Shown: positions 18,952 to 63,170 of the stretch, one piece after another
How positions within the stretch are numbered: the first letter of the stretch is position 1
Layout: the number at the start of each line of letters is the position of its first letter
DNA from: Candidatus Borrarchaeum weybense
Lineage (GTDB): Archaea > Asgardarchaeota > Sifarchaeia > Borrarchaeales > Borrarchaeaceae
NCBI GenBank assembly: GCA_019057385.1
Contig: JAHQJS010000004.1
Span: forward strand, 980,727 to 1,044,726
Length of the DNA: 64,000 bases
Direction: 5' to 3'
Program-made: the position numbers and the translations under genes
The notes under the pieces: generated by a model
Seen by the model: only the letters and a program-made list of their open reading frames with translations
What the model was told of the DNA's origin: nothing
Database searches by the model: none

Positions 18952-19257
18952 TTTGATTTCACCTCAATGAGTATATATCTAAAAAGTGATATCCTAAAGT
19001 GTATACCTAAAAGCTATTTAAGACTTAGCTTTTTTGCTGATAGACACTTACGTCACAGATCAGACAGGTCTTTACCTCACACAAATAGGGGTGCACGTCA
19101 TAAGTCTGAATCCTGCGAAATTGATGACTGGGTTTTGTTCAATATCGATTTTCTCACGTTTAAGCTCGATGCCTTGCGTGATAAGATGCAAGGAATGCTG
19201 TACTAAATTTGTGGAGTTTAAAAATCAACTGTAATATAAGATAAATAGAAGGCGATC

Positions 19258-20784
19258 ATGATGATTCAGACCATCAAACTCCGAATGTATCCTGATGAGG
19301 CACAAGAATATCAACTCCATGAAATCTTTACCATCTATAACCGGGTGAAACGCATTGGTTACAACCTGCTGTTTCATAACGAGGACTACATGGTAGAGCG
19401 CTTCGATGAGGGTAAAACCATCCAACAGTGTTTGATGAGTCTGTGCCACAATAACCCTTATGTCAATACTATCTTGATTGACAACAAGGCGCAACTGGAA
19501 TCACAAAAGACGTGGCTGGAAAAACGACGCACACGCATGACACAGCAGCTACAAGTCATCATCAAGAAAATCAAAACAATAAAAGAGAAAGATACACATG
19601 ACAGACGGTTGAAGGGCTTATACGCCCGTAGATCCTCAATAATGGCTAAACTGCGCAATTTACACCTCGAACCTGTGGTATTTGGCACTAAGAAATTATT
19701 CAGAGACAGAATACGCGGCAACATAAGTAGGGAAGAGTTCAGGATACGACGGGATTCTTCTTTCAGTTGCATTGGAAAGCAACAGGGAAAAAACCTGAAC
19801 ATTAAAGTATTGCCCAGAAAAACCGTCAAGATACGCACCTTTTCCAAGCAAAAAGGATGCAAATGGCTGATCATTTCCCTTTCCGTAAACTCTGTGCAGG
19901 AAAAATGGTTTCAAGATATTTTTAATTCCGACAAATACACGGTGACCGTGAAACGGAAGTTTTTCAAGGGGACGGTGCGTTATTTTGTCCATGTTTCTTA
20001 TGAAATTCCAGAACCTGTACCACGTTGTGGCTACGAACATGGTGCCATCGGATTAGATTTCAACTATAATTTTGTTGCCCTGACCAATGTCGATCAACAT
20101 GGTACATTACTCTCTTATCATACCATTTCGTTTTGCAACCTCCACAGCTATCGAACAAATAAACGTAGCGATTACATCTCTTATAAGATGGATAAAGTCG
20201 TCAATTATTGCATCAATAAGGGCAAGGGCATCGTGGTCGAGGACTTACAATTCGGCCAAGAGTTTTACTATAATAAAAAACGCAACCGAAAATTCAGCAA
20301 TATGAAGACCACTGCCTTGCAGCTGTTAGAGAGAAAATGCAAAAAGCGAGGTGTGTCCTTTCGAAAGGTATTTCCTGGATATACCTCCATAATCGGGAGG
20401 TATAAGTATTCAGGATTACATAATTTGTCAACACATCACTTAGCAAGTTATGTAATAGCTCGAAGGGGTTTAGGTTTCAGGGAAGTCATTCCAGCCATCT
20501 ACGATTGGGTGTCCTCACAAGTCGGGGAGTTCATAGAACCCCGTTTGAAACAGGATAGTCCTTACCGTAGATGGTCGATGATCCATGACCTCTTCAAGCA
20601 CAGTGGGATAACTTCCTTCAAGGCTGCCGAAATACTTAAAAAAACAGTATTAATGAGGCATGTTTTGCACTCGGTGACGAGCGCACAGCCCGATAACCTT
20701 AAGGCTGGTTCTTCCTTCTTGAAAGCAGGGAGAATTGATGATTATTATAAAGTGTGGAATTTTATAACTAATCCCACATTATAA
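19258..20784 (+). CDS. tnpB: IS200/IS605 accessory TnpB-related RuvC nuclease (no adjacent TnpA)
   Basis: N-terminal TIKLRMYP, RuvC-I GLDFN, RuvC-II VVEDL, PGYTS, STHHLASYVIARRGLG. Confidence 0.8.
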   Translation: MMIQTIKLRMYPDEAQEYQLHEIFTIYNRVKRIGYNLLFHNEDYMVERFDEGKTIQQCLMSLCHNNPYVNTILIDNKAQLESQKTWLEKRRTRMTQQLQVIIKKIKTIKEKDTHDRRLKGLYARRSSIMAKLRNLHLEPVVFGTKKLFRDRIRGNISREEFRIRRDSSFSCIGKQQGKNLNIKVLPRKTVKIRTFSKQKGCKWLIISLSVNSVQEKWFQDIFNSDKYTVTVKRKFFKGTVRYFVHVSYEIPEPVPRCGYEHGAIGLDFNYNFVALTNVDQHGTLLSYHTISFCNLHSYRTNKRSDYISYKMDKVVNYCINKGKGIVVEDLQFGQEFYYNKKRNRKFSNMKTTALQLLERKCKKRGVSFRKVFPGYTSIIGRYKYSGLHNLSTHHLASYVIARRGLGFREVIPAIYDWVSSQVGEFIEPRLKQDSPYRRWSMIHDLFKHSGITSFKAAEILKKTVLMRHVLHSVTSAQPDNLKAGSSFLKAGRIDDYYKVWNFITNPTL

Positions 20785-20789
20785 ATAAT
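20741..20789 (+). other. Imperfect inverted repeat at the tnpB 3' end (possible right-end/omega-RNA hairpin)
   Basis: attattataaagtgtgg ... cccacattataaataat. Confidence 0.4.
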
Positions 20790-20918
20790 TGTAAGGTTTA
20801 AGAATATCCACATAATTTTTCTTGATTCCCAGTCCGTTTCGTAAGTTCAAAATTTGTCTTCCTCTTATAAGCTCTAAATTTAGAAAGTCAAATTAAGGAT
20901 TCAAAGGAGTTCCTAATT

Positions 20919-21335
20919 GTGAATAAACAAACTGATTTACAAAATAATAAGGAACTTTATGGCGTTTTCAATGAATTAAGGAACTATTTAGCCGGTATGG
21001 CTGCTGGTATGACTCGTGATGAAAGTTTAATACAAGAATTGATACCTCTTCTCTTTTGTAAAATTTATACTGAAAAAAATATAGATTTGAAAGATAAGTT
21101 TCGAGCAGAATCAAAAGAATCAGCCGGTGTTATAAAAAGGCGGATTTCAGCAATTTTCAAAATGGTTAAGAAAGAATTTGAGGATATTTTTGAAGAAGAG
21201 GAAAAAATTGATCTAAAGGCGGAATCAGTTAAGTTCATTGTCAGCAAGCTGCAAAATCATGATCTAACGACGGTGGATCAAGATGCAATCGGAAATCTGT
21301 TTGAATCCTTCCTTGGTCGATCGTAGCCAAAGATA
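20919..21335 (+). pseudogene. 5' part of an N6-adenine DNA methyltransferase (HsdM-like N-terminal domain), interrupted by insertion
   Basis: FNELRNYLAG..GMTRDESLIQELIPLLFCKIY...DAIGNLFESFLG aligns with FKDIKNHLYG..GITRDEALIQEIMNLLFCKIY...NAIGDAFEVFIG of 24093..26666; continues at 23694. Confidence 0.85.
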
Positions 21336-21427
21336 CCAATTTGCTCGTAGCTAAAACAACTAATACTGATACTAAAATGTTACTCAAGCAGATTTGATTG
21401 TTTTGTATAATTAGTAGATGGTATCTA
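21331..21427. repeat. Long imperfect inverted repeat at the left junction of the insertion
   Basis: agatacca/tggtatct, tttgct/agtaga (with G-T pairs), aaaacaa/ttgtttt nested arms. Confidence 0.55.
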
Positions 21428-21523
21428 GTGTACAACTGATTTTCTCATTATTTACAAACAACTAAAATCTCAAATAACGTCTATAAACCACGAAAATTTA
21501 CTATCATACTTTTACTGTGGTCT

Positions 21524-21566
21524 CTCTCTAGTAAAATATATTATATTTCATAATTTTTCTAGAGAG
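21524..21566. promoter_or_regulatory. Palindrome flanking the TATA-like promoter of the cas7-like gene (possible operator)
   Basis: ctctctagtaaaat ... atttttctagagag around an AT-rich TATA-like stretch. Confidence 0.45.
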
Positions 21567-21595
21567 CATGTATGTATTCTATCGAGGTTGTAAAC

Positions 21596-22408
21596 ATGAA
21601 ACAAACAAAAAAACAGATCGTGGTTCGTGCCTATACTCCAATAGCTAAACCTCATAATGTGTCTATTCAAAAAAATTCCACTATGCTTCTTCTAGGTGAA
21701 ATTTCTTATGAAAGTGGTTCGAAAGCATTCAATACAAAACTGTATTACATTAAAGGGGTACGCGGAATGTTGAGGCATGCCGCCATGTCTCTTGCTCAAG
21801 ATTGTGGTATAGAAGTCTGCCATTCCAGTGAAAAAACTGAGCTCAAAGATGGGACTCAACTCGTTCCTTCTGGTTTCCATCCTCTTGGCTCATGTGATCC
21901 TCCTTGTATTCTCCGAAGAATCTTTGGCACCTTCCGCGAAGAATCCTCAATCTCCGTCTTAGTTGATCCTATTGCTTCGATAAAGCATAAAGAATACACT
22001 ACTGAGTTACCTGCTCAAAAAGTCCATATCGCCACTGAAAATAGGATAGCCCTTACTTATGATAGAACGGCTATTCAAGATTTTCGTGAAAGCTATTTCA
22101 GCGGGTATTTTAACTTCGTAATCGACATCACAAATTTAACCGATGATGAGATCAAGTTCATCGTGGAATCGTTGCTCTACATCGAAACACTTGGCAGTGG
22201 CAAAAATGCTGGTTATGGATATATCAAGATTCTAGAGGTCGAAATCCAGAATGTACATGTTTTGCGAAACATCACGATGGATAACGGAGTATATAAGATC
22301 ATTGAAGAAATCGAAGTAAAACCGATACTACTTGAAAACATCGAAGAATGGAGAAACGCGTATATGAGAGAAAATCTGATAAAAATTGAACAACAACACT
22401 CCACTTGA
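21596..22408 (+). CDS. Cas7-group RAMP protein (Csm3-like, Zn-binding insert)
   Basis: RAMP hallmarks: first strand ending TP (AYTP), KGVRGMLRH helix, C-H...H...C..C.LRRIFG, C-terminal G-rich loop LGSGKNAGYG; GAGGT RBS before ATG 21596 (alternative start 21572). Confidence 0.85.
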   Translation: MKQTKKQIVVRAYTPIAKPHNVSIQKNSTMLLLGEISYESGSKAFNTKLYYIKGVRGMLRHAAMSLAQDCGIEVCHSSEKTELKDGTQLVPSGFHPLGSCDPPCILRRIFGTFREESSISVLVDPIASIKHKEYTTELPAQKVHIATENRIALTYDRTAIQDFRESYFSGYFNFVIDITNLTDDEIKFIVESLLYIETLGSGKNAGYGYIKILEVEIQNVHVLRNITMDNGVYKIIEEIEVKPILLENIEEWRNAYMRENLIKIEQQHST

Positions 22409-22482
22409 TTAGTTGTGAAAGGGCGTGAGAAATAATGGAGATTTTCTCTTCTAAGACGCTCATCGCCCGCTTTTTCTCAGCT

Positions 22483-22606
22483 AAGACGGAATACTTCTTG
22501 TAATCTGCAAGAAGCACGTTCTTATGTGAGAGACAGTTATTATAGAGGTCCCAAACCTCGGTTGATGGGGAAAGAATGTCCGGCAGAGGGATGAATAAAA
22601 CGATAA
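22483..22606 (+). ncRNA. Structured repeat copy A (candidate guide-RNA scaffold)
   Basis: Homologous to 23573..23694; AAGACGGA-hairpin-CGTTCTT, GAGAC, GAGG-TCCCA-CCTC hairpin, ends GATAA. Confidence 0.65.
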
Positions 22607-22708
22607 CTACTTTACCAAAAGGGTTACAAAAGCCGTTACTTTCCCATGGTCTTATATCTCCCGTTTAAATGACAAAAAATTTAAAACATCCTATAGTGGT
22701 GCTGAAAA

Positions 22709-23512
22709 ATGCCAAAAAGATGGTTTAAATTATCTGGTGTAACTAAAACTCCAGTGATCACGAAAAAAAGACATTTTTTTCATAAATTTGGGGTAATTAC
22801 CATTAATGGTAGTCCTAGAGTGTTCGGTAAACTTACGAAAGGTGAGAGACGCGCTCCTATGACCTTTAGGGCATGGCATGGAACAGTAGAGTTTATTATT
22901 CCTCACTCAAAACTCGAACCAGCGCTCGCTATTGAAAGTATCGGGAGATATACCCATGAAGGGATGGGGCAAATACTGTGGACAAGTGTAAAACAACTCC
23001 CCAAAAGACCTCTCTATACTCCAAAAAAAATTAGGATTCGTAAAATGCTCCCAAAACTTTCAGATACATGGGAAAAACTAATGATCGCCATGTTACTACA
23101 TGATTTCGTGAATACTGAAAAACATTCCAGCAAAATTTACTCTGAGGTTACTATCGTTGATGACGACGTATATAATCTAGCGAAAAATCATCATAATTAC
23201 GAGATGGATGAAAGGGAATTGCCCCTCCTCGCTACCCTCCAACATTATGACCAAGTTTCTTCCTCAATTTCTCGAAAGTTTAGGTGGTCTACCTCCTCAC
23301 GTTATCGTGCAGATATTCAAGAGAAAATAGATTTTGATACACTAAAAAGAGAGATAGAATTGAGAAAACATTCTCTTTATGCTCTTTATAGCTTCATCTA
23401 TAAGTCTCAAGTACTTAATGAGATCAATGAGGCAATAGAATTTGGTTTCTCTTCTTTAAAAAACCATCTTCTTCTGATGGTCAATCTCTTTCTTGATGAC
23501 CTTTATGGATGA
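22709..23512 (+). CDS. Minimal Cas5-like RAMP fused to a circularly permuted (Cas10-type) HD nuclease
   Basis: N-terminal FKLSGVTKTP strand and G-loop IGRYTHEGMGQI; C-terminal LLHDF, HH, YD..SS..R and terminal SLKNH (first HD His motif moved to the end, as in Cas10). Confidence 0.75.
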   Translation: MPKRWFKLSGVTKTPVITKKRHFFHKFGVITINGSPRVFGKLTKGERRAPMTFRAWHGTVEFIIPHSKLEPALAIESIGRYTHEGMGQILWTSVKQLPKRPLYTPKKIRIRKMLPKLSDTWEKLMIAMLLHDFVNTEKHSSKIYSEVTIVDDDVYNLAKNHHNYEMDERELPLLATLQHYDQVSSSISRKFRWSTSSRYRADIQEKIDFDTLKREIELRKHSLYALYSFIYKSQVLNEINEAIEFGFSSLKNHLLLMVNLFLDDLYG

Positions 23513-23572
23513 GTTTTTATGTCACAAGTTATGGTGTTGCAATCCCTCTTTACAGATAAATATACAGGATGC

Positions 23573-23694
23573 AAGACGGACTGTTCATCGCATATCGCGA
23601 TGAACACGTTCTTGTACATGAGACTGAACCCGAGAGGTCCCACGCCTCAGATGACGGGAATGGATGACAGGCCAAAGGACGAGAAAAGTGATAA
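23573..23694 (+). ncRNA. Structured repeat copy B (candidate scaffold ending at the element's right junction)
   Basis: Perfect 10-bp hairpin TGTTCATCGC/GCGATGAACA with compensatory changes relative to copy A; ends GATAA immediately before the resumed MTase codons. Confidence 0.65.
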
Positions 23695-23755
23695 ATACGG
23701 ACACTTTTTCACGCCAAGAAACGTTGTCAGATTCGCTATTACCATTAATGATCCT
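23694..23755 (+). pseudogene. Resumed fragment of the interrupted methyltransferase
   Basis: YGHFFTPRNVVRFAITINDP matches EGQFFTPRNVVRMAVEILDP of the intact paralogue; homology then stops. Confidence 0.8.
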
Positions 23756-24092
23756 AGGAATGGTAATGGCATCCTCCCTATTTTTTTATTTTTTCAATAA
23801 TAGTTTTACATGAACCTCTCTTTTAAAAAAATGCCATTCATCCACATTATCATAGAAACTTCTAGCGAGATTACTAAGACTTGCCCAGAGCATCTATCTA
23901 TAACACACGAAAGATCAAACTTACTATAACAAAATAAACGTCAGAGGGGTTCTGGTAAAATGCTTCATAATTTTGAATAGTTTTGTCGGTTCCCCATACA
24001 ATTTTATAGATGTTGTTTGCAAAAAAGAACATCAAATTAGATTTCCTAGTTTTTTAACTTAAGTCAATGATTGCTCAGGTTGGTTAAGAATT

Positions 24093-26666
24093 ATGCCGAC
24101 ACGAACGAAATCAGTTGAAAAGGTTTCCTTTGCTGAGGAACGCGTCAAAGGACAGATGAGACTTATTGATTTTATTTCTGGAAGTTTAGTTGAAGCCACA
24201 CCTGAAGAGGTAGAGGCTGTTCAGGTCTTTTCTCGCAGATTGGTCGAAGAGTTTGGATATGATAAAAATCAAATCCAAACAAGACCTCAATTTAAAATCC
24301 GGGGCGCACCGTCAGGTAAACCAAAATATCCTGTTGACATAGCCGTCTTTAATGACGAAAAAAAAACCCATGGCAACTTGTTTATGATTGTCGAATGCAA
24401 ACGAAAGACTCGTCGAGATGGAGAAAAGCAACTGAAAATATATTTGGGACTATCAAGTGCTCAGATAGGAGTTTGGTTCAATGGTAGTGAGCACCTCTAC
24501 CTACAGAAGATTCTCGACAAAGAGGGAAATGTAACCTACAATTTAATTCCCACGATTCCCAAAAAAGGACAAAGAATTGAAGATATTGGCAAATACAAGC
24601 GAAAAAACCTGACGAAACCGAGTAATATAATCTCTTTGTTCAAAGATATTAAGAATCACTTATACGGAAACGTCGTAGGAATTACTCGTGATGAAGCTTT
24701 AATACAAGAAATAATGAATCTACTATTCTGCAAAATATACGATGAACTGAATACTGCTCCGGAAGATGATGTTGCTTTCAGAGTAGGAATCAATGAAGAC
24801 TCGAATCAGGTCAAGGAGAGAATCTCTGAGCTATTCAAGTTTGTGAAAATAGCATACGAGGATATCTTCGAAGAGCGAGACGAATTACGTCTTGATCCTG
24901 ACTCACTTTGTTATGTTGTTGGCGAATTGCAACCTTATAGTCTGTCAGAAGTAGATAGTAACGCAATAGGCGATGCGTTCGAGGTATTCATTGGAAAGGC
25001 GCTCAAGGGTGCCGAGGGGCAGTTTTTTACACCTCGAAATGTGGTTCGAATGGCTGTTGAGATACTTGACCCACAACCCTACGAACATATCGTTGATCCT
25101 GCATGCGGTAGCGGAGGTTTCTTAATATTTGCAATGGAACATGTGTGGCAAAAACTTAAGATTGAAGCTAAAAGAAAGAATTGGTCAACCGAAATGCTAC
25201 AGAAAAGAAAGACAGAAATTGCGAGCAAATTTTTTGGTGGAATTGACAAGGACATGTTCCTAGCAAAAGTCACAAAGGCTTACATGGCACTAATAGGTGA
25301 CGGTAGAGGCGGAATATTCTGTGAAAACTCTTTAGAATTCCCAGAAAAATGGCAGGCGACTACCCAACAAAGAATAATGCTTGGTAAATTTGATGTTCTA
25401 TTTACTAATCCTCCCTTCGGATCAAAGATCACTATCAAGAAATCATTGTATTCTCAGTTCGAGTTAAGCTTTAAATGGAATAAAAACAAAAAAACTGGTA
25501 AGTGGAAGAAGGGTAATAAACAGGCAGACAAAAGACCACCGCAAGTTCTGTTTATTGAGCGATGTTTACAATTTCTTGCTCCAAACGGAAGAATGGCAAT
25601 CGTTTTACCTGATGGTTTATTAAGCAATCCCAGCGATGGTTATATTACACAGTATATCAAGGATAATGCTGAGATCATTGGACTCGTCGATTTACCAATG
25701 AGTACTTTCTTACCTAATACACCCACGAAGACACATATTTTGTTCTTAAGAAAGAAAAAACCTGAGGGGAACTATCCAATCTTTATGGCCTACGCGAAAA
25801 CTTGTGGACATGATAAGAGAGGGAAGATCATCTATAAAGTCGGTGAAGCTGGTCAAAATGTTGTTGATGATGACATTTATGAAATATCAAAGCATTTTGC
25901 TCGCAGATATGAAAGAGTTAATAAATATGATAGGAAGGGATTTCTTGTTTATCTTGACGATTTAAAGTCAGGTATACTGTTACCGAAATATTATAATCCA
26001 GAATTGAATGAGAGATTAGAAGCGTATCGACAGACTGGTGAATATGACGTTTATTCTATAGGTGATTTAGTTAAACTGGGAAAGTTGTGGATAAGGAGAG
26101 GCCATGAAGTCGGATCTGTGAATTATGGAACTGGCGATATCCCGTTTATTCGGACTTCGGAAATATCAAATTGGGAACTAACTGCCGATCCTACTCATTG
26201 TTTAGCCGAGGATATATACGAGGAATACAAGGATCGCCAGAAACTAAAAAAAGATGATATCTTAATTATAAATGATGGTACGTACCTAATGGGTCGAACC
26301 GCGATACTTTCTGAAAATGATACAAAAATTGTTGTTCAAAGTCACATCAGAATTCTTACAGTCTTAGACCGAGAATTTATTCACCCTTATCTTTTGTTGT
26401 TCCTCTTAGGATTGAGAATTGTTCAAGAACAGATTGAGTCGAAATCCTTTAGACAAGCTACTATCTCTACTCTAGGAAACAGACTTCTTGAAATCAGAAT
26501 CCCACTACCAAAAGATGAAAAAGTAAGAAAAGAAATTGTTGAGCAAGTTTCTAACATAGTTGAGAAGCGCTCGATGCTAAGACATAAGGCGATGAATATT
26601 GAATTCAATGGAACATCAGAGAGTGTTATGGGTATAAAAAACAAGGCAACCTTGGGAAATCTATAG
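24093..26666 (+). CDS. Fused restriction-modification enzyme: HSDR_N-like PD-(D/E)xK nuclease + N6-adenine MTase + HsdS-like TRD (type IIG-like)
   Basis: VDIAVF..IVECK, GQFFTPR, DPACGSGGF, NPPF, C-terminal TRD (GDIPFIRTSEI, DDILI...G..GR.A, IPLP). Confidence 0.88.
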   Translation: MPTRTKSVEKVSFAEERVKGQMRLIDFISGSLVEATPEEVEAVQVFSRRLVEEFGYDKNQIQTRPQFKIRGAPSGKPKYPVDIAVFNDEKKTHGNLFMIVECKRKTRRDGEKQLKIYLGLSSAQIGVWFNGSEHLYLQKILDKEGNVTYNLIPTIPKKGQRIEDIGKYKRKNLTKPSNIISLFKDIKNHLYGNVVGITRDEALIQEIMNLLFCKIYDELNTAPEDDVAFRVGINEDSNQVKERISELFKFVKIAYEDIFEERDELRLDPDSLCYVVGELQPYSLSEVDSNAIGDAFEVFIGKALKGAEGQFFTPRNVVRMAVEILDPQPYEHIVDPACGSGGFLIFAMEHVWQKLKIEAKRKNWSTEMLQKRKTEIASKFFGGIDKDMFLAKVTKAYMALIGDGRGGIFCENSLEFPEKWQATTQQRIMLGKFDVLFTNPPFGSKITIKKSLYSQFELSFKWNKNKKTGKWKKGNKQADKRPPQVLFIERCLQFLAPNGRMAIVLPDGLLSNPSDGYITQYIKDNAEIIGLVDLPMSTFLPNTPTKTHILFLRKKKPEGNYPIFMAYAKTCGHDKRGKIIYKVGEAGQNVVDDDIYEISKHFARRYERVNKYDRKGFLVYLDDLKSGILLPKYYNPELNERLEAYRQTGEYDVYSIGDLVKLGKLWIRRGHEVGSVNYGTGDIPFIRTSEISNWELTADPTHCLAEDIYEEYKDRQKLKKDDILIINDGTYLMGRTAILSENDTKIVVQSHIRILTVLDREFIHPYLLLFLLGLRIVQEQIESKSFRQATISTLGNRLLEIRIPLPKDEKVRKEIVEQVSNIVEKRSMLRHKAMNIEFNGTSESVMGIKNKATLGNL

Positions 26667-62168: not shown

Positions 62169-63170
62169 ATGAACTCAAGAGAACGAGTTTTAACAACATT
62201 TCAGTTTGAAGAACCAGACCGAGTTCCCCTCTTTGAAGCCTGGATTGAAGGGGTAATAATGGATGCAATTGGTAATGGCGACCCATATAAAACTCGTGAA
62301 AGACTCGGTCTTGATTGTATGCCAATAGCAGTTGGGCATCCTAAAAGCACTAACGCCTGGAAAACCGGAACTGATGAATGGGGGCGGATTTTCAAAAATC
62401 ATTGGTACTTAGGAGGCGTTGTAAAGAGCTTAGATGACGTAGAAACATACTCGCCACCATTAGAGTACGCAGAAGAATGGTTTCCCTCTGAAATGATGAA
62501 AAAAACTAGAAAGATTTATGGAGACACTCATGCACTGTATTATGCGTTCCATGATGTATGCTTAGTCCTATCCTATATGAGCATGGGAATGGAAGATTTT
62601 TTCGTAGCAGTTCATAGAAATCGTGAATTGGTAGAAGCTTTAATTCAAAGAAGCACCGATTGGACGATTGCAATGATCGAGCAAGCTAACGCTGCTGAAG
62701 TTGATTTCATTATGATAGGTGATGATGTAGCAGATAGTAAAGGTCCAATGATTTCTCTCAAAAATTTTCGAGAAATGGTACTTCCCAAATACAAAGAAAT
62801 TGTTTCAGCATCTGAAATTCCACTTATCTGGCACTCAGATGGACAAATTCAACCATTACTGCCCTTTATTATCGAGGCAGGATTCGCAGGAGTTCATGCA
62901 CTTGAACCTGATGTTGGAGTGAATATGGGTAAGATTAAGGAACAATATGGTGATAAATTAGTCCTAGTTGGAAACTTAGATGTTACAAATATTTTAACTC
63001 AATCTGATCTAGAATTAGTCCGTAAGGATGTTAAACGTTGTATCAAGCAAGGTGCACCTGGAGGAGGCTATTTATTTTCTTCATCAAATAGCTTGTTTAA
63101 TGGCATGTATATCGAATCAATTCTTGAAGCCTATCGTTATGCCAAAGAAATTGGCTACTATTCTGGATAA
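62169..63170 (+). CDS. Uroporphyrinogen decarboxylase-family (MtaA/CmuA-like) protein
   Basis: MNSRERV...EPDRVP, DEWG, GDD, HSDG, GNLD, GGGY. Confidence 0.82.
   Translation: MNSRERVLTTFQFEEPDRVPLFEAWIEGVIMDAIGNGDPYKTRERLGLDCMPIAVGHPKSTNAWKTGTDEWGRIFKNHWYLGGVVKSLDDVETYSPPLEYAEEWFPSEMMKKTRKIYGDTHALYYAFHDVCLVLSYMSMGMEDFFVAVHRNRELVEALIQRSTDWTIAMIEQANAAEVDFIMIGDDVADSKGPMISLKNFREMVLPKYKEIVSASEIPLIWHSDGQIQPLLPFIIEAGFAGVHALEPDVGVNMGKIKEQYGDKLVLVGNLDVTNILTQSDLELVRKDVKRCIKQGAPGGGYLFSSSNSLFNGMYIESILEAYRYAKEIGYYSG

Follow-up and report, generated by a model that had tools for sequence, protein, structure and literature searches.

A conserved structured RNA at the 3' end of ARAMP gene modules in Candidatus Borrarchaeum weybense and other Asgard archaea

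In the current classification of CRISPR systems, ARAMP and HRAMP are listed as array-less systems derived from type III, whose mode of action is unexplained and whose mechanism is called enigmatic (PMC8730458, PMC12669027). The passages of these papers devoted to ARAMP describe a system of Asgard archaea with genes for diverged Cas7 and Cas5-like RAMP proteins, an associated nuclease and, in most loci, a distinct Cas1 (PMC8730458, PMC12669027); HNH and PD-(D/E)xK are named as the most common nucleases of ARAMP and HRAMP (PMC12669027). An RNA component is absent from those passages (PMC8730458, PMC12669027); a conserved non-coding region may figure in the original 2020 description of ARAMP by Makarova et al. 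Here we describe a structured RNA element, about 130 nt long, that occurs twice (copies A and B) in a 64,000-nucleotide stretch of the Candidatus Borrarchaeum weybense genome (C4:980727-1044726 of 4.18 Mb; hereafter the window), next to two genes that form an ARAMP module. This RNA is multi-copy, its structure is conserved across distant Asgard lineages, and comparison of the loci places it on the sense strand just 3' of a gene for a RAMP-HD protein. Set against the ARAMP passages of the two papers and a scan of Rfam, it is the previously undescribed RNA of the ARAMP modules, and we consider it highly probable from these comparisons that it is a functional RNA partner of ARAMP. All genomes used for comparison are metagenome assemblies.

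Judged by gene content, the module is an ARAMP system, given that a Cas7-like RAMP (PF03787, Csm3 models), a nuclease, Cas1 in the loci, the lack of an array and an Asgard host are all found here. The modules of this genome differ from the published descriptions in having a conserved structured RNA in every module, in having as nuclease a Cas10-type HD domain fused to a small RAMP domain rather than HNH or PD-(D/E)xK, and in that their two-gene versions act as discrete mobile units. The genome holds 11 cassettes whose proteins share 65-80% identity; their order is Cas7-like RAMP, RNA, 267-residue protein, RNA. The model of the 267-residue protein is of high confidence (AlphaFold pLDDT 92), and the structure closest to its residues 118-267 is the HD domain of Csm1/Cas10 (Z 8.6 with VIA-align); alignment revealed the invariant residues H131, D132, H139, K142, D181 and H253. 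For residues 1-105 the best structural matches are type IV Csf, Cas6, Csm4 and Cmr3, all at Z 6-7, and Cas5 and Cas6 are therefore not separable for this small domain. A gene for a protein of about 1330 residues lies upstream in 6 of the 11 cassettes, the window's own locus being without it; the two such genes that were scanned both contain DEAD and helicase C domains and one of them matches Cas1 (PF01867), and at a seventh locus a 1337-residue NACHT/STAND protein takes the place of the helicase-Cas1 gene. Relatives of the Cas7-like and RAMP-HD proteins were found only in Asgard archaea, namely Promethearchaeota, Sifarchaeia, Hodarchaeales, Heimdallarchaeota and Ca. Borrarchaeum. No regular short repeats were seen near the modules, and the sole CRISPR array found in the genome (C4:148.6-152.1 kb) has a repeat of about 37 nt ending in ATTGAAAG on the reverse strand, which is unrelated to the ARAMP RNA. 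Large leucine-rich-repeat proteins are encoded divergently upstream of several cassettes; examples of these and of the NACHT/STAND neighbour are at L036 14409-16367 and L039 10546-14559. The left arm of two of the two-gene modules (C6:562232-562513; L047 1721-1999) also contains a reverse-strand open reading frame (ORF) of about 43 codons, which by eye resembles ribbon-helix-helix proteins and which the window's module lacks.

Copies A (22483-22606) and B (23573-23694) had been picked out, in an earlier note made from the letters of the window alone, as diverged copies of one structured RNA, and we found both their positions and their mutual alignment to be correct. The 10-bp hairpins described for them are likewise present, that of A (22492-22501/22507-22516) with one A.C mismatch and one G.U pair and that of B (23582-23591/23597-23606) perfect, and each appears in the minimum-free-energy (MFE) fold of its copy. 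A profile built from copies across the genome recovers A with an nhmmer e-value of 1.7e-19 and B with one of 2.1e-34, and iterated nhmmer searches gathered 29 copies of the element in the genome, 24 of them full length. Among the latter, copy A is the most degenerate (71 bits, versus 105-119 for the others); its MFE z-score is -0.67 versus -1.97 for copy B, which the covariance model scores at 139.7 bits. In a contig of a related strain, in which about 5% of aligned letters differ from the window, 22492-22636 is absent and a 5-nt repeat, TACTT, stands at the joint. A second copy regularly occupies the 5' leader of the RAMP-HD gene, between it and the Cas7-like gene, and solo copies without ARAMP genes occur at C4:562854, C4:1262891 and C6:210642. 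Tandem copies are spaced by 28, 35, 54, 95, 128, 146, 200, 376 or about 980 nt, and a gene may lie between them. Spacer acquisition was considered as their source and ruled out: the extra copies that can be traced are tandem duplications that include the upstream leader.

Beyond this genome, the covariance model of the element (R1) finds 3-22 matches in each of five genomes, namely the four of the genus and one from another family of the class. At every locus of this close clade with enough flanking sequence, a match lies directly 3' of the RAMP-HD gene. In 145 further genomes of the phylum the model finds no match; if the RNA occurs there, it is in a diverged form. Heimdall-type loci have such a diverged homologue immediately 3' of the RAMP-HD gene, with 47 matches in 44 loci, all on the sense strand and at times in tandem. 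Searches of viral contigs returned three matches to the core motif, none of which was confirmed by the covariance model. Rfam 15 gave no match at the gathering score anywhere in the window and none at E<=10 across the element. Elsewhere in the genome a HEARO RNA (the omega-RNA of IscB type) was detected with 125 bits beside a 400-codon ORF (C4:705319-705554; L138 5320-5555, minus strand), which shows that the Rfam scan does pick up known guide scaffolds in this genome. The lack of an Rfam match, together with the covariation found in the larger alignment, bears out the suggestion of an RNA scaffold belonging to no known family; even on a cautious reading, the comparative data make the element a new RNA family with a well-supported structure.

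The hairpin of the two copies, here termed P2, had been proposed because its differences seemed compensatory, and the 24 full-length copies confirm this: 8 of its 9 pairs are changed on both sides, and 94% of the cells of the alignment stay paired. When the partners are slid against each other, pairing in P2 falls from 96% to 42-56%, and none of 500 shuffles reached the observed covariation. A further helix, P3, pairs ACC-NNN with NNN-GGG and takes forms such as CCCG/CGGG, CCAA/UUGG, CCAUC/GAUGG, CUCAUC/GAUGAG and CCCU/AGGG among 32 distinct arm pairs. Because the lengths of its arms vary, P3 is overlooked by automatic alignment; the 5' and 3' arms of a given copy nevertheless pair better with each other than permuted arms do, none of 5000 permutations matching the observed value. 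P3 encloses P4, a GAGG/CCUC hairpin with a conserved 7-nt loop. Both RNAalifold and copy B's MFE fold predict a long-range helix, CGUUCUU/GGGGACG; its variation consists only of alternation between G.U and A.U, and it is therefore unproven. Two of the pairings proposed earlier found no support in the comparison. For that of AAGACG with CGTTCTT, the copies behind the Cas7-like gene have CAUAACGG or CAUGACGG, which disrupts the pairs and is not compensated; in the RNAalifold and MFE predictions the partner of CGUUCUU is instead GGGGACG further downstream. As for the pseudoknot between TCCC and GGGA, covariation argues neither for nor against it, and it would compete with the long-range helix.

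The Heimdall form shares the core of the element, comprising a variable hairpin, CAUGA, CUGAC, a GAGR/YCUC hairpin and AGGCAG. In it 16 of 24 predicted pairs are compensatory and 94% of cells are paired, versus 32-41% with the partners slid, and by every measure none of 500 shuffles reached the observed value. Compensatory change backs three predicted helices in the clade of this genome and six in the Heimdall clade. Many G.U pairs are conserved in both clades, which on the other strand would be A.C; this points to the sense strand as the folded strand, and hence to RNA. The CUGA and GAUGAC motifs were also considered as a K-turn or C/D box, a reading that was dropped because the key G is not conserved. 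The P2 hairpin was likewise rejected as a guide, its sequences having only chance matches of 13-17 nt elsewhere in the genome.

The 3' end of the RNA is the right-hand boundary of a unit that stands at different chromosomal sites in related genomes. At the window's own locus, homology among the cassettes runs from the Cas7-like gene to 23693-23695, and a methyltransferase paralogue breaks off at residue 303 (21323) and continues from residue 309 (23699); the 2375 bp in between are therefore an insertion, with the end of the RNA as its right edge. A Promethearchaeota contig (L047) has a 2.36-kb module, made up of the small reverse-strand ORF, the Cas7-like gene, the RAMP-HD gene and the RNA, between sequences that are 15 nt apart in the present genome (C6:557713/557729), which thus presents the empty site. 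Among relatives, 18 flanks are homologous to parts of this genome that lie outside its ARAMP loci, and there the homology sets in 2-9 nt past the end of the RNA. Conversely, two of three flanks of this genome that were tested (K9 and K4) match RNA-free loci of relatives, starting within a few bases of the end of the RNA, and the K5 flank matches relatives from 4 nt past it. At the K5 site of one relative (G050), 6.6 kb of the cassette is gone and only the 3' half of the RNA is kept. For the window's own module, neither an empty site nor a homologue of the flank was found in the sequencing runs examined and five relatives. At the left ends of the modules no related sequence was found, and no shared motif defines them. 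We also looked for a common target gene downstream of all terminal copies, and found unrelated housekeeping genes instead. The features of the window's module and its borders are collected in Table 1.

Table 1. Features of the ARAMP module and the adjoining DNA, in window positions
Feature	Positions	Strand	Evidence
N6-methyltransferase paralogue, left fragment (about residues 169-303 of the intact gene at 24093-26666), host DNA	20925..21323	+	tblastn 42% identity; NCBIfam MAD2 methyltransferase, positions 172-303
Left arm of inserted module, AT-rich, non-coding, probably a promoter region, not common to other modules	21324..21571	+	cassette homology starts at about 21576-21584
Cas7-like RAMP gene, 278 aa, Csm3-like	21572..22408	+	Pfam PF03787 5e-7; PADLOC Csm3 models; 11 paralogues in genome
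RNA copy A, degenerate; 5' UCUCA-type motif and P2 hairpin 22492-22516	22470..22606	+	nhmmer; MFE fold; absent from related-strain contig
Gene for RAMP (residues 1-105, G-rich loop) plus Cas10/Csm1-type HD (118-267)	22709..23512	+	alignment; AlphaFold; structural match
RNA copy B, predicted intact scaffold; P2 23582-23606; putative long-range helix CGUUCUU (23607-23613) with GGACGAG	23573..23698	+	nhmmer; covariance model; MFE; covariation
Copy B, further parts: P3 CCCG/CGGG around P4 hairpin GAGG/CCUC; tail GUGAU plus 6 nt	23573..23698	+	nhmmer; covariance model; MFE; covariation
Host DNA after scaffold: methyltransferase right fragment, residues 309-328; first ~42-48 nt = candidate guide	23699..23758	+	tblastn 14/20 identical; register

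What follows the RNA at its 3' end bears on a possible guide function. Cas7 backbones of type I and type III complexes flip out every sixth base of the guide. Positions are counted here from an anchor six bases after the conserved GU[C/G][A/G]U tail. In one relative (G050), three tandem copies of the RNA precede the RAMP-HD gene; copy 1 is followed by 41 nt that correspond (35/41) to a stretch immediately upstream of the present genome's RNase P RNA gene, and copy 2 by 43 nt that correspond (40/43) to this genome's 16S rRNA gene. Both matches start at the anchor and then end. A third segment, of 47 nt in G020, matches in inverted orientation an ORF about 220 nt away, and further short segments were found in L045/L082 (29 nt) and L161 (30 nt). 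In these five segments, of 29-47 nt, 11 of 16 mismatches fall on multiples of 6 and 2 on odd multiples of 3, a bias with a chance of about 5e-6 by hand count. The 30-nt segment of L161, which also belongs to G050, matches 28/30 at window positions 63126-63155, near the 3' end of a 333-codon ORF (62169-63170), which is therefore a possible target of a stored guide inside the window itself.

The flanks that simply continue into host DNA give a more mixed picture. After copy B, the codons of the methyltransferase begin exactly at the anchor (23699). In a first set, made up of contiguous flanks and four of the short segments, multiples of 6 account for 36 of the 67 mismatches up to nt 48 and odd multiples of 3 for 14, whereas beyond nt 66 the counts are 55 and 61, as expected from plain codon periodicity (near versus far, Fisher p 0.004). 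The non-sixth positions in this set are about half as variable near the scaffold as further off (p ~1e-3). Pooling contiguous and short segments gives 45 to 25, versus 61 to 69 far away, at roughly p 0.02 by hand tally. From these counts, the sixth-base periodicity appears strong for the short stored segments and mixed for the simple flanks.

Taken as a whole, the explanation that we favor by a small margin of belief is a scaffold with a 3' guide, integral to ARAMP modules in the manner of omega-RNA or crRNA (CRISPR RNA). That the element itself consists of scaffold plus 3' guide is, from these sequence patterns, about evenly balanced. The RNA would then form the scaffold part, or handle, of a guide RNA; the guide part would be about 42-48 nt of the following DNA, beginning six bases after the GU[C/G][A/G]U tail. 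The RAMP-HD protein would sit on the scaffold as a cap, several Cas7-like subunits would cover the guide, each step taking up 6 nt, and nucleic acid that the guide matches would be cut by the HD domain. With a guide taken from adjacent host DNA, such a complex would recognize the uninterrupted (empty) allele, which would help the module to home or to be retained, the part that omega-RNAs play for IS200/605 elements; stored short guides that match distant loci could direct insertion or interference elsewhere. Homing as the purpose of the guide RNA is a tentative proposal. Within this explanation copy B would be the working copy at the end of the module and copy A a decaying internal duplicate. 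A still wider view would make the ARAMP modules RNA-guided mobile elements assembled from class 1 CRISPR parts, a multi-subunit counterpart of OMEGA, in which the 130-nt scaffold at the right end would take as guide either the adjoining host DNA or a stored segment of 42-48 nt, the Cas7-like filament and the RAMP-HD nuclease would find the empty allele or a chosen attachment site and the helicase-Cas1 fusion of full-length elements would carry out integration, in trans for the two-gene versions too; with the mechanistic steps included, we regard this as doubtful.

Several observations weigh against a guide. The sixth-base register was noticed after the fact, and codon periodicity is a confounder, most flanks being coding sequence whose phase agrees with the register. 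In contiguous flanks the signal failed to recur: K9 and K4 of this genome show no sixth-base periodicity, and a second set of new loci gave, with duplicates removed, 8 mismatches at multiples of 6 versus 8 at odd multiples of 3. Inspected by eye, the K5 flank shows differences at positions 21 and 39 in G050, which has lost the cassette there. Relative to the genes they match, the short guide-like segments have no uniform sense, and the spacing of tandem copies, at 28-980 nt, is irregular and therefore without array-like regularity. Copies in front of the RAMP-HD gene precede a conserved promoter-like region and not a variable guide. The candidate guide of the window, finally, matches only its own interrupted paralogue, with 12 mismatches in 36 nt versus the intact neighbor gene.

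Comparison with known guide RNAs gives likenesses and differences on several sides. The guide of an omega-RNA is read from the DNA just outside its IS200/605 element. Like the omega-RNAs of IscB and TnpB, the present RNA is a long structured scaffold at, or overlapping, the 3' end of a nuclease gene at the right end of a mobile element. It differs in that its effector would be the Cas7-like and RAMP-HD proteins rather than a single IscB/TnpB-type RuvC nuclease, in that it matches neither HEARO nor any other Rfam model, in that the candidate guide is longer (~42-48 nt) and has a 6-nt register, and in that no TnpA-type transposase is present. With class 1 crRNAs it would share a conserved handle beside the guide, a Cas7-family partner and possibly one of the Cas5 family, a guide length in multiples of 6 and the exemption of every sixth base from pairing, the signature of which is seen in the short guide-like segments. 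However, its handle is a multi-helix structure of about 130 nt rather than 8 nt cut from a repeat of 24-48 nt, it forms no regular repeat-spacer array, its copies lying 28-980 nt apart with at times a gene between them, and the genome's own CRISPR repeat is unrelated to it. The GGGGACGAGAA tail of the RNA may resemble the 3' end of a staphylococcal type III repeat. CRISPR-associated transposons (types I-F3 and V-K) offer the precedent of a nuclease-poor class 1 effector on a mobile element, and their homing guides are directed at conserved host genes or at RNA genes close to attachment sites. Guide-like segments found here similarly correspond to 16S rRNA, to the RNase P flank and to an ORF lying some 220 nt from the element's end. 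The present modules differ from these transposons in having no Tn7-like transposition genes, with Cas1-helicase in place of TnsABC, and in having an HD nuclease; RNA-guided insertion is here only a proposal.

Alternatives in which the element has no guide need to be set against the same observations. If it acted as DNA, it would serve, at the right end of a mobile unit, as the site of recognition or integration; the helicase-Cas1 protein would move the unit, acting in trans on the two-gene modules, and the hairpins would form in single-stranded DNA. The coincidence of its 3' end with the insertion boundaries agrees with this, as do the Cas1 match in one of the two upstream helicase genes scanned, the presence or absence of copy A between strains with the 5-nt repeat at the joint, and the occurrence of the unit in tandem duplication. 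Yet the conserved G.U pairs give the structure a strand asymmetry unusual for DNA hairpins, no related sequence was found at the left end of the modules, and a multi-helix architecture has been kept over wide divergence even where it overlaps the 3' end of the nuclease ORF; the sixth-base mismatches would also be left unexplained. We hold a purely DNA-level role to be unlikely, though a site of this kind and an RNA function can both hold. Similarly unlikely, in our estimate, is a cis-acting RNA of the operon without a guide, such as a stabilizer in the 3' untranslated region, a processing or termination signal, or a binding site through which a RAMP protein regulates its own synthesis. Such a role would suit an element whose place at the RAMP-HD gene's 3' end is fixed and which recurs in that gene's 5' leader; the tail is Shine-Dalgarno-like (GGUGAU) with a start codon next to it in at least two loci (L079, L134), it precedes the next gene in Heimdall loci, and the inconsistent periodicity of the contiguous flanks fits as well. 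A cis-acting RNA would leave unexplained, however, why a mobile unit ends at the element and why discrete segments of 29-47 nt match distant loci with mismatches at sixth bases; moreover, about 130 nt with at least three conserved helices is large for a terminator or stabilizer, and solo copies persist without the genes. A cis-regulatory role alongside a guide is possible.

We further considered whether the similarity among copies might reflect a small protein gene or its remnant, represented in the window by a 93-residue ORF (23519-23800) and its relatives. One frame is indeed free of stops in 17 of 24 copies, an upstream ORF reads through the element in many Heimdall loci, and a 252-codon ORF covers three tandem copies. 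In that ORF the middle copy is read in a different frame, and among the copies nucleotide identity (77-88%) exceeds peptide identity (44-61%). Substitutions between copies show no excess at third codon positions, as the earlier note had stated for A and B. The stop of the upstream gene in Heimdall loci varies in position, from 140 nt before the start of the element to 207 nt past it, and homologous bases, as read from the sequences, stand in different codon phases in the two clades. Coding would also not account for the covariation of base pairs. The differing frames, the variable stop and the lack of a third-position excess rule out a protein-coding remnant, and a small protein gene of any kind is very hard to reconcile with the data. 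A match to an unrelated miniature inverted-repeat transposable element is ruled out as well, the element having no terminal inverted repeats and being tied to one gene module. That it is an autonomous short repeat of such a kind, accumulating near ARAMP genes, seems to us extremely improbable: it is multi-copy and has a few solo copies, but its strand and position are fixed relative to one gene in two deeply diverged clades, and its copies are 65-85% alike, tracking the divergence of the genes rather than recent bursts.

The presence of a conserved, covarying RNA in every ARAMP module provides a candidate nucleic-acid component for ARAMP. Should the element indeed be scaffold and guide, ARAMP would be a compact programmable class 1 effector of two proteins of about 270 residues and one RNA, a new case of mobile elements that use guide RNAs, and evidence on the re-use of CRISPR effectors and Cas1 by mobile DNA in Asgard archaea. 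If, further, the modules were RNA-guided mobile elements, this would supply a mechanism for the ARAMP and HRAMP systems that are described as array-less and enigmatic, and would connect mobile elements with type III effectors and Cas1 in those archaea that are most closely related to eukaryotes.

The window and the genome also show other features. A TnpB-like gene of 508 codons (19258-20784) lies upstream of the ARAMP module and is an insertion separate from it; the genome holds 15 full or fragmentary copies of it (72-84% protein identity) and three distant relatives. In one short contig, which comes from a different study, 19023 is joined to 20810, suggesting an empty site for this insertion (19024-20809), the support being weak, with a side of 24 nt. 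Downstream of the module, an intact N6-methyltransferase of 857 residues with an HSDR_N domain (24093-26666) is followed by a 263-codon ORF (to 27555) that repeats its C-terminal third; the direct repeats are 889 nt apart and share 71-76% nucleotide and 59% protein identity. Possibly a specificity domain has been duplicated here, or can be shuffled, in surroundings that resemble a defence island. Lastly, in the rRNA locus at C5:332568-340197 (L136 6568-14197), the 16S gene spans 2666 nt versus the 1478 positions of the model and the 23S gene 4804 nt versus 2987, and by these lengths both genes carry large insertions that are probably introns.

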